This document shows, piece by piece, positions 1,239 through 2,744 of a stretch of 13,044 nucleotides of DNA. Under the pieces are notes generated by a model that saw only the letters and a program-made list of their open reading frames with translations, had not been told where the DNA came from and made no database searches. The DNA comes from Octopus sinensis (lineage: Eukaryota): NCBI RefSeq assembly GCF_006345805.1, contig NW_021826376.1, forward strand, positions 1 to 13,044, given 5' to 3'. A program made the translations under genes and the position numbers. How positions within the stretch are numbered: position 1 is the first letter of the stretch; each line of letters opens with the position of its first letter.

Positions 1239-1344
1239 GTCTGTCTGTCTGTCTGTCTGTCTATCTATCTATCTATCTATCTATCTATCTATCTATCTAT
1301 CTATCTATCTATCTATCTATCTATCTATCTATCTATCTATCTAT
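1239..1344. repeat. (GTCT)n(CTAT)n compound microsatellite; left flank of the Tx1 element
   Basis: Directly visible. Confidence 0.97.
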
Positions 1345-2712
1345 CCGCATCCTCTTCCGCTTCTTGTGGAAAGGATGCGGTCCCGATGGTCAGGCGATCC
1401 ATTTGCTGTCAACACCCGTTAAAAGGAGCTGGGCATGCCGTGGTTAATGATGCGCAGACACGCGCTGAGACTGCGACATCGCCGGCTCTATGTAGACGAC
1501 GTGAACAGGTGTGGTCGCCGTTTGTGAGGCACGCATTCCCGCAACTCGTCTCCATGACGAACTACAGTGTGGATCAAAAAGAGGCCGGAAGAAGGGCGAA
1601 TGGCACCGCGAGTGTCGCGTTGCTCTCAAGCAACTCTGCCGTCCCCGGTCGACATCGAGTGACTTCAACACAACCAAAGCATTCTATAGGGGATTAGTGG
1701 AGGGGAGGTAACGACGACGAGCTCGGGGCAAACCTGGGCGTCGACGAGGAATACGACCCGCCTGTTTCAAACGACTTTCGGCCCGGACCTATGGACAACT
1801 TCCAGAGATCCCTGGCCTGGCGGTGCTACGAGAAGCGCTACCCTTTCGGGATAAGCTCATAGGCATGGCTCGAGAAACACGGGGCCGACCTGCCCGAGAT
1901 GCGGGCAGAGCGACGAAACGCTCTGCACGCAATCGTGCAGTGTCCAGCAATTTCCCACCTGTGGGCTTATGTCGAACGACTGCTGTCACGTGTGGGACGT
2001 GTCGGTTTTCAGCGCCGAGTCTATCGTTAATATCGTCACGCCTCCTTCCTTCAAACGGGAAGGAAGAGCTATTTTTATCATACTTGTGGCTATGGCGAAA
2101 GAATGTATCTGGTGGACGCGTCTGAAAGGATTGAGAGAACAAACACTTTCCTCTCTGGTCAATCTCTCATCAACTTCTTCAAGTATCACTTGAAGAAAAA
2201 AGTGAGAGTAGAGAGGCAAGTTTTGTCTAGTGAATGTTTTAAAAAACGATGGTGAATGTAGCAAGATGGCCCGTATGAATGACGAAGCCACCTTGACTAT
2301 GATTCTATGAACCGTAAAAATTAATACAGAGAGTTCTTATTTGCAAAAAAAAAAAAAAAGAAATATAACATGTGACTTCATTGACCGAGGTTACCGTGGT
2401 CTTTTTCCGTAGGCTTTCTTTCCACGGGTAAACCTCACCGTCCTCCCCTTTACACTTCATATTGACATTTCTATGATAACGATCCCTATTGATCAATTTT
2501 TTTCCCCTCCCCCTTTTTTTTTAACCCCCCTTTTTTTTGTCCTCTTTCTCTCCTTTTAACGATCCCTTTTGATCGACCCCCCTTTTTAATTTTATTTTTA
2601 TTTTATTTTTTTAATTTTTAATTTTTTTTATTTTTTAAACCTTCAAAAGAAAAGCTCTACCTTGTAATTTGTTCTATCTGTGTGCAGCCCTGTGTGGCTA
2701 ATAAAGAAACAT
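1345..2712 (+). mobile_element. 5'-truncated L1/Tx1-clade non-LTR retrotransposon (ORF2 C-terminus plus 3' UTR)
   Basis: Frameshift-corrected translation reads RILFRFLWKG..(G)LGMP..WRC..ALPFRDKL..CPRCGQSDET-LHAIVQCPAISHLW..AKECIWWTR..KRW. These match the post-RT FLW and GGLG motifs and the C-terminal CCHC zinc knuckle (1891-1943) of L1/Tx1 ORF2. A pyrimidine-rich 3' UTR and AATAAA at 2700-2705 follow. Confidence 0.88.
1346..2310 (+). pseudogene. Frameshifted ORF2 fragment of the Tx1 LINE (post-RT region and CCHC zinc finger)
   Basis: Assembled from supplied ORFs 1092..1697, 1511..1711, 1823..2125 and 1969..2193 plus linking frames. Probable original stop TGA at 2308-2310. Confidence 0.82.
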
Positions 2713-2744
2713 ATCTATCTATCTATCTATCTGTCTGTCTGTCT
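2713..2744. repeat. (ATCT)n(GTCT)n microsatellite; right flank of the Tx1 element
   Basis: Directly visible immediately after AATAAAGAAACAT. Confidence 0.95.

Follow-up and report, generated by a model that had tools for sequence, protein, structure and literature searches.

Several long interspersed nuclear elements (LINEs) are known to insert preferentially into microsatellites. In teleosts, Kibi is directed to (TC)n and Koshi to (TTC)n, and crocodilian Tx1 families are directed to (TTCC)n/(TTTC)n (Kojima 2015, PMC4494074, citing Kojima and Fujiwara 2004). Waldo, with the target (ACAY)n, and Mino, with the target (AC)n, are insect elements of the R1 clade, and Dong is found in (TAA)n (PMC3812793). 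Togen, which is placed among the NeSL relatives, targets (TG)n, some HERO families also lie in microsatellites, and the R4 and NeSL clades encode a restriction-like endonuclease (PMC4640811). Here, we analyzed a stretch of 13,044 nucleotides from Octopus sinensis (assembly GCF_006345805.1, contig NW_021826376.1, positions 1 to 13,044; referred to below as the window), which contains at 1346..2712 a LINE copy flanked on both sides by (ATCT)n, i.e. (GATA)n on the complementary strand. A target-specific LINE family with a new target motif, following the mechanism typical of target-primed reverse transcription (TPRT), is well supported by the analysis.

Kibi, Koshi, and the crocodilian Tx1 families share many features with the octopus element: all are LINEs of the L1/Tx1 group with an apurinic/apyrimidinic endonuclease (APE)-type endonuclease, all have the repeat on both sides and no poly-A, and all form head-to-tail stacks. 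The likeness was drawn from these features of the elements. In contrast to the polypyrimidine targets of these families, the octopus target is a mixed purine/pyrimidine repeat (ATCT/GATA), often in a GATA/GACA compound, and the host is a cephalopod mollusc. Dong, which belongs to R4, and Togen are likewise microsatellite-specific retrotransposons without long terminal repeats (non-LTR retrotransposons); the octopus element differs from them by its APE-type endonuclease. In the accessible parts of the literature on microsatellite-specific LINEs, no GATA/ATCT-targeting LINE was found, Repbase entries lying outside this search. Nor was one found in the corresponding parts of octopus and cephalopod repeat papers (PMC13282606 with its supplement, PMC8967140, PMC9115989). 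As far as these parts go, the paper on O. vulgaris repeats and its supplement (PMC13282606) give class totals only, without targets or sequences. This outcome agrees with an initial annotation of the window, made from the sequence alone, which knew of no description of the family.

Results

ATCT arrays at both junctions

Flanks were analyzed in two samples of 30 copies each. Sample 1 comprised the 30 best-scoring 3′ ends, including the window's own copy, and sample 2 the 30 places that come first on contig 1 among the exact matches to the terminal 26-mer of the element. A junction was considered to carry an array when at least three perfect ATCT units were present within 40 nt. Arrays were detected at the 3′ junction of 25 of 30 copies in either sample, at the 5′ junction of 24 (sample 1) and 21 (sample 2) copies, and on both sides of 20 of 30 copies in each. 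In the pooled samples, 50 of 60 3′ junctions and 45 of 60 5′ junctions carried an ATCT array. The 5′ arrays adjoined 37 of the 52 truncated copies and all eight full-length copies. Truncation points were scattered over the element, and the 3′ end was constant. Three copies with internal deletions were traced to their true 5′ ends, two of which adjoin arrays.

As a base rate, the presence of three ATCT units within 44 nt upstream was determined in control DNA, 200 kb taken arbitrarily from two other chromosomes of the same genome. Such units were found for 939 of 400,000 strand-positions. Since this is a rate of only 0.23%, chance was excluded as an explanation for the flanks in the window. For comparison, Kojima's working criterion regards a LINE as target-specific when more than 20% of its flanks contain one kind of sequence (PMC4494074); the value here is 75-83%. 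Neither random flanks nor ATCT at the 3′ end only, the two patterns that the initial annotation had set against its proposal of targeting, were thus observed.

The arrays had a constant orientation. The terminal CAT of the element was followed directly by ATCT in 55 of 60 copies (by eye). Arrays of the opposite orientation (AGAT) were scored in none of the 60 5′ flanks, and by eye none was seen in the 3′ flanks. Two of the misses deserve mention: L018 has a small 5′ inversion, and L024 has a 5′ flank of the opposite repeat strand.

Genome-wide, the exact terminal 26-mer occurred 4,847 times (a control word, 0 times), and 2,972 of these 4,847 3′ ends (61%) ran straight into perfect, in-phase (ATCT)3. 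An exact 27-mer of the full-length 5′ end occurred 54 times. When the two lists were cross-matched, TCTATCTATCT was present no more than 12 nt upstream of 42 of the 54 full-length 5′ ends; in two of the remaining 12, an array is located slightly past the permitted gap. Targeting of ATCT/GATA arrays is therefore well supported, and the truncated copies together with the genome-wide junction counts bear out the earlier proposal of a tetranucleotide-specific family.

We also noted that (GTCT)n/(TCTG)n often joins ATCT in compound arrays, both in the window (1240-1262 and 2733-2744) and at many other loci, which corresponds to GATA/GACA arrays. Most copies with a non-ATCT second flank unit run into GTCT. 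Arrays of this kind are called Bkm repeats in vertebrates (name as used in PMC5517068).

Arrays as split targets

Array lengths on the two sides of the copies were equal (median 84 nt vs 84 nt, n = 39, Wilcoxon p = 0.83), as determined with a crude measure that also scored an (AT)n flank. It follows from the equal lengths that the array was the target, divided by the insertion, and does not represent a templated tail. At 31 truncated 5′ junctions, the first element bases continued the phase of the array for 1.87 nt on average. Microhomology of at least 2 nt was present at 14 of these 31 junctions, compared with 15.6% under a conservative null (p = 1e-4), as is expected when a cDNA end joins an existing repeat. 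Among the first 100 sites on contig 1, 19 had a same-strand neighbour within 7 kb and none an opposite-strand neighbour, with about 1% expected. This pattern is the head-to-tail stacking typical of site-specific LINEs.

The 200 kb of control DNA, a small sample, contained 13 arrays. Arrays exist without the element, as no more than 3 of the 13 had a relative of it, however distant, in their vicinity. Two weak element matches (about 70% identity) were detected in the control DNA, one of which ends directly at an array; two further arrays are located at most 400 nt from that match. In the whole genome, an (ATCT)6 25-mer had 1.38 million overlapping matches (counting steps inside arrays), or about 0.2% of the genome.

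The initial annotation had also suggested that the element may seed or extend GATA arrays. No support was obtained for this idea: the 3′ arrays were no longer than the 5′ arrays, few control arrays lay near a relative, and no duplication was found beyond the 3′ arrays. In 14 copies without a 5′ array, the 5′-flank sequence was never duplicated beyond the 3′ array; 11 of them share no stretch of at least 8 nt with the DNA beyond the 3′ array, and three share 9-12 nt of simple repeat.

Insertions outside arrays and the putative nick position

Candidates for off-target insertions were 170 copies genome-wide in which CAT and ATCT are followed by two units not starting with A. Many of these run into (GTCT)n. 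Fifteen such copies were located in unique DNA and had a resolved 5′ end; these form the off-target set. In five of the 15, at least 7 nt of the 3′-flank prefix, starting with ATCT, were repeated in the 5′ flank. The repeated sequences are (i) ATCTCTACTAT in L183; (ii) ATCTTTCATTCTT in L200; (iii) ATCTTCACTTAGA(TGGC) in L202; (iv) ATCTGTT in L191; and (v) ATCTTCT in L201. Four of the five repeats end at most 4 nt from the 5′ junction determined by BLAST, three exactly at the junction, and the fifth is 27 nt upstream of the junction. Of 210 mismatched flank pairs, only 6 did as well. The off-target target-site duplications span 7-17 nt.

Because it is part of a target-site duplication in these unique-DNA insertions, the ATCT beside the element end is target DNA. 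The first nick would then lie just before ATCT on the top strand, i.e. at 5′-AGAT/N on the bottom strand. Bases preceding the duplication were scored in nine cases, namely the five strict ones and four shorter or imperfect ones picked by eye. The base directly before the duplication was T in 9 of 9 cases and the base before that was C in 8 of 9 (background T 0.32, C 0.18). As bases outside the primer cannot pair with the RNA, the conserved T and C would point to recognition of TCT/ATCT by the protein; in a small, selected set (n = 9, five strict) this is an indication, not proof. From these insertion scars, we infer that the endonuclease would recognise the repeat and nick it in a sequence-specific manner. 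As to extra ATCT units that the RNA might carry, among 120 copies with exactly two units, of which 30 were fetched, no informative unique-DNA case was present in the 11 examined.

Two further loci are of note. The pair L182/L183 (G000:C2:111427531-111430665) is located in unique DNA, where its two 3′ ends are separated by 107 nt and share the about 62 nt that come next, a sequence opening with ATCTCTACTAT. A repeated insertion at one nick (with a 62-nt duplication) and a 107-nt tandem duplication explain this arrangement equally well; owing to this double reading, only L183 was counted above and L182 was left out. At L204 (G000:C9:26728136-26729883), (ATCT)n is present at the 5′ junction, and ATCTG followed by opposite-strand (AGAT)n on the 3′ side. 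The 3′ side is an inverted junction of two arrays.

The full-length element and its classification

The full element is about 6.2 kb long, and the eight full-length copies in the two samples share a common 5′ end. Both open reading frames (ORFs) are open in one copy, L159, with 704 aa for ORF1 and 1145 aa for ORF2. In translation, ORF1 displays a single knuckle (C-X2-C-X4-H-X4-C), for which the Pfam zf-CCHC score of 17.5 bits is under the cut-off of 20.8; ORF1 had no match to Transposase_22, RRM, or any other family in Pfam. In ORF2 of L159, Pfam matches were obtained for Exo_endo_phos, an APE endonuclease domain (residues 20-210, E = 4.9e-15), RVT_1 (509-756, E = 5.4e-32), and zf-RVT, the C-terminal CCHC (E = 1.6e-7). 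The closest solved protein was human L1 ORF2p (E = 2.6e-42 over residues 10-699), followed by R2 proteins (E about 1e-18).

The endonuclease domain was modelled from an alignment of 32 relatives (mean predicted local distance difference test score, pLDDT, 94.5). Its nearest fold was that of the L1 endonuclease (L1-EN; template modelling score, TM, 0.82-0.85; E = 9e-21), while the R1-clade TRAS1-EN ranked 47th (TM 0.72). N8, D141, N143, D202, D226, and H227 were invariant in the 32 relatives and align to the catalytic core of L1-EN. Waldo and Mino are also APE-type, microsatellite-specific LINEs, one of them on a tetranucleotide, but belong to another clade, that of TRAS1.

The element is an APE-type non-LTR retrotransposon of the L1/Tx1 group. 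In ORF2, an N-terminal APE-like endonuclease precedes the reverse transcriptase (RT); a C-terminal Cys-His motif is present, and L1-type ORF2 proteins are the closest relatives. Copies also display the scars of TPRT, i.e. variable 5′ truncation, a fixed 3′ end, and target-site duplications. With human L1 (structures 8sxt and 9hdr; L1-EN 1vyb and 7n8k), the element shares the order of ORF2 domains and the best match in sequence and fold. In both, copies are often 5′-truncated and display 5′ microhomology together with duplications of 7-17 nt. Human L1, however, uses loose TTTT/AA nick sites genome-wide and needs a poly-A tail, whereas the octopus element would use TCT/ATCT and ends in ...AAACAT without an A-tail. 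With its CCHC knuckle and without a match to Transposase_22, ORF1 also differs from that of human L1.

Membership was established at the level of the group, and as to Tx1 versus L1 there are hints only: the CCHC-type ORF1 and the listing of O. vulgaris LINEs. In that listing, 'L1-Tx1' is the sole L1-group class among the recently active LINEs (PMC13282606, Table 1), and 'L1' families are also present according to the supplement, as far as these parts of the source go. The Tx1 clade itself rests on RT-domain phylogeny (Kapitonov et al. 2009, as cited in PMC4494074). A homologue search with ORF2 returned 159 matches; among the 120 listed, three are named, none with a Tx1 or L1 name. A protein atlas search gave generic endonuclease/RT clusters only. 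A hypothetical protein of Argonauta hians was 65% identical to ORF2 across 59% of its length, so that a related LINE is present in another octopod. This match suggests an ORF2-related lineage common to octopods.

For the last 312 nt of the window copy, at least 2,030 candidate places were found in the 2.72-Gb genome; the 40 scored places (including the window's own copy) were 91-100% identical. Family copies are 93-100% identical, and frames of at least 1,145 codons were open in 18 of 62 scored ORF2 matches. Such high identity, together with the many open ORF2 frames, suggests that the family is young and may still be active. The predicted RNA fold of the last 100 nt was no better than that of shuffled sequences (z = +0.94).

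Subfamilies were apparent among L068, L081, L084, and the short copies L070-L097, all of which keep the terminal word and ATCT flanks. One subfamily is about 89% identical, with a divergent 5′ untranslated region (UTR) and ORF1 region, and in others the 3′ UTRs are only 70-85% identical. L084 resembles a recombinant or a nested pair. A SINE head was not seen, by eye, on any of the very short copies in the two samples.

The copy in the window

All features of the window copy are on the + strand. The upstream half of the target microsatellite (1240..1345) consists of (TCTG)6 followed by (TCTA)21 up to the 5′ junction and is listed by Tandem Repeats Finder (TRF) with period 4 and 26.5 copies. The LINE copy itself (1346..2712) represents the last 1.37 kb of the 6.2-kb element and is 96% identical, in alignment, to positions 4832-6205 of a full-length copy of 6205 nt. 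It is truly 5′-truncated, because longer copies continue upstream of its start point. A remnant of the ORF2 C-terminus occupies 1346..2310 (residues about 823-1145 plus the stop codon, by tblastn with the open ORF2 of L159) and is split across three frames by 1-nt indels; a frameshift interrupts the C-terminal zinc-knuckle motif CPRC...H....C (1891..1943). The 3′ UTR (2311..2712) is T-rich and of low complexity, with AATAAA at 2700-2705 and the fixed family end ...GAAACAT.

The element ends in ...AATAAAGAAACAT at 2712, directly followed by (ATCT)5 with no A-run or poly-A. The downstream half of the microsatellite (2713..2744), also listed by TRF, comprises (ATCT)5 at 2713-2732 and (GTCT)3 at 2733-2744; its strand and phase match those in other copies. 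Taken as a whole, the succession TCTG-TCTA, element, ATCT-GTCT looks like one compound array split in two. Both junctions had been recognized in the initial annotation. The truncated 5′ end does adjoin (CTAT)n, although at 1345/1346, one base from the previously assigned 1344/1345, and the 3′ end was confirmed at 2712/2713 to run into (ATCT)n in the same orientation without poly-A.

Compared with L159, whose ORFs are open, the window copy displays 95.4% identity with 18 mismatches and 29 gap openings. The gap openings are mostly single-base and not confined to homopolymers. The indels look more like uncorrected long-read error in a small unplaced contig than like decay; since an excess of gaps over mismatches resembles such error, the frameshifts were given little weight. 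The best DNA sequencing runs contain only 0.43 of the sampled 31-mers of the window, and no RNA run is listed as containing them.

Other repeats were also detected in the window. A second dispersed family is represented at 3112-3471, at 11101-11466, and, partially, at 5956-6107. The two full copies are 84-98% identical over matched segments, and each contains an internal (TTAGGG)3 followed by a G-run. At 9061-9393, an inverted repeat has 118-nt arms that are 92% complementary and separated by 97 nt; it is possibly a small foldback element or one resembling a miniature inverted-repeat transposable element (MITE).

Discussion

In our judgment, the copy in the window is very probably a truncated LINE of the L1/Tx1 group inside (ATCT)n/(GATA)n, from a family whose APE-type endonuclease likely nicks the AGAT strand at a fixed point. 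In the TPRT scheme proposed here, the endonuclease would nick the bottom strand at 5′-AGAT/AGA-3′ (top strand TCT/ATCT), and the freed ...AGAT-3′OH would serve as the primer from which cDNA is made at the RNA end ...AAACAU. Priming may be aided if the transcript reads into the downstream array of the source copy and so contributes AUCU units for pairing. Cleavage of the second strand would take place some bases downstream, and the often incomplete cDNA end would be joined by microhomology to the upstream ATCT run. As the repeat would be left on both sides of each insertion, the site could be hit again. A bolder version, to which we give slightly less than an even chance, holds that the endonuclease is a true sequence-specific nickase reading about seven bp (TCT/ATCT), that the family, still intact, is the first LINE shown to aim at GATA/Bkm-type repeats, and that its lineage is old within octopods.

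The specificity could also reside largely in the RNA. The choice of ATCT would then be made mainly by AUCU units at the RNA 3′ end that pair with the nicked target, and the endonuclease itself would have little preference. Such pairing would equally explain the constant 3′ phase (ATCT after CAT in 55 of 60 copies), and transcripts would probably run into the array of the source copy, given that AATAAA lies only 13 nt before the element end. Read-through of target sequence is known to help R1 and TRAS insert precisely. In the unique-DNA insertions, however, ATCT comes from the target, where it lies within the target-site duplication, and the two bases upstream of the putative nick, although outside the primer, were CT in nearly every case of a small sample (T in all 9, C in 8). 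We therefore consider it unlikely that pairing of the RNA is the main determinant. Several observations nevertheless weigh against targeting by a specific endonuclease. The strict 3′ array is absent in 10 of 60 copies and the strict 5′ array in 15 of 60; copies failing the array criterion include decayed arrays, internal rearrangements, one assembly gap (in sample 2), and truly non-array flanks. The off-target set was selected for ATCT after CAT at the 3′ junction, so that only the ATCT of the upstream duplicate and the preceding CT are informative. Six of the 15 off-target copies lack even a 4-nt prefix repeat, and four more have one of only 4-6 nt. Finally, the evidence on nicking specificity consists of insertion scars.

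Two further explanations dispense with target specificity altogether. If (ATCT)n were a templated or slipped 3′ tail in the style of CR1, L2, or RTE, the upstream array in the window would have come about by chance or as the tail left by an older insertion. Some 5′ arrays do represent tails of copies located upstream (e.g. L045 and L166), and about 9 of 60 copies have a 3′ array without a 5′ array. Nevertheless, a repeat at the 3′ end only, as in templated-tail LINEs of the CR1/RTE type, is not what the family displays: 37 of 52 variously truncated copies adjoin ATCT arrays at the 5′ end against a base rate of 0.23%, and unique DNA lies upstream of many of these 5′ arrays. A templated tail is also at odds with the equal array lengths, with the lack of duplication past the 3′ array in the 14 copies without a 5′ array, and with the off-target copies, which have just one, target-derived ATCT; we regard it as highly improbable. 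Insertion might instead be random, with copies accumulating or surviving in microsatellite-rich DNA of low recombination, as was proposed for Drosophila Waldo-A/B near CA repeats (PMC3812793, in the part consulted). The octopus genome is rich in simple repeats, as the 1.38 million overlapping matches of the (ATCT)6 25-mer illustrate. Passive accumulation predicts, however, neither a fixed junction phase nor a single orientation (0 of 60 opposite 5′ flanks), and neither 5′ microhomology nor off-target duplications starting with ATCT. Moreover, the other microsatellites in the window (TA, TG, ACAT, and AAT) are without copies, and the chance of this explanation appears almost negligible.

For studies of octopus, the family has practical consequences. 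A share of GATA markers is flanked by this LINE, which would cause multi-locus amplification, and repeat annotators tend to split such elements at arrays. The family also offers clean material: its copies number at least 4,847, many ORF2 frames are open, the junction phase is fixed, and off-target scars outline the putative nick site.

Site-specific LINEs show how a retrotransposon reaches thousands of copies while sparing genes, and their endonucleases are studied as natural tools for targeted insertion. To these LINEs, the octopus family adds a new kind of target, the mixed-sequence tetranucleotide GATA/ATCT, and a new host phylum. If its endonuclease is a sequence-specific nickase, it would be a natural enzyme that places kilobases of DNA at a genomic word which is defined, abundant, and harmless.

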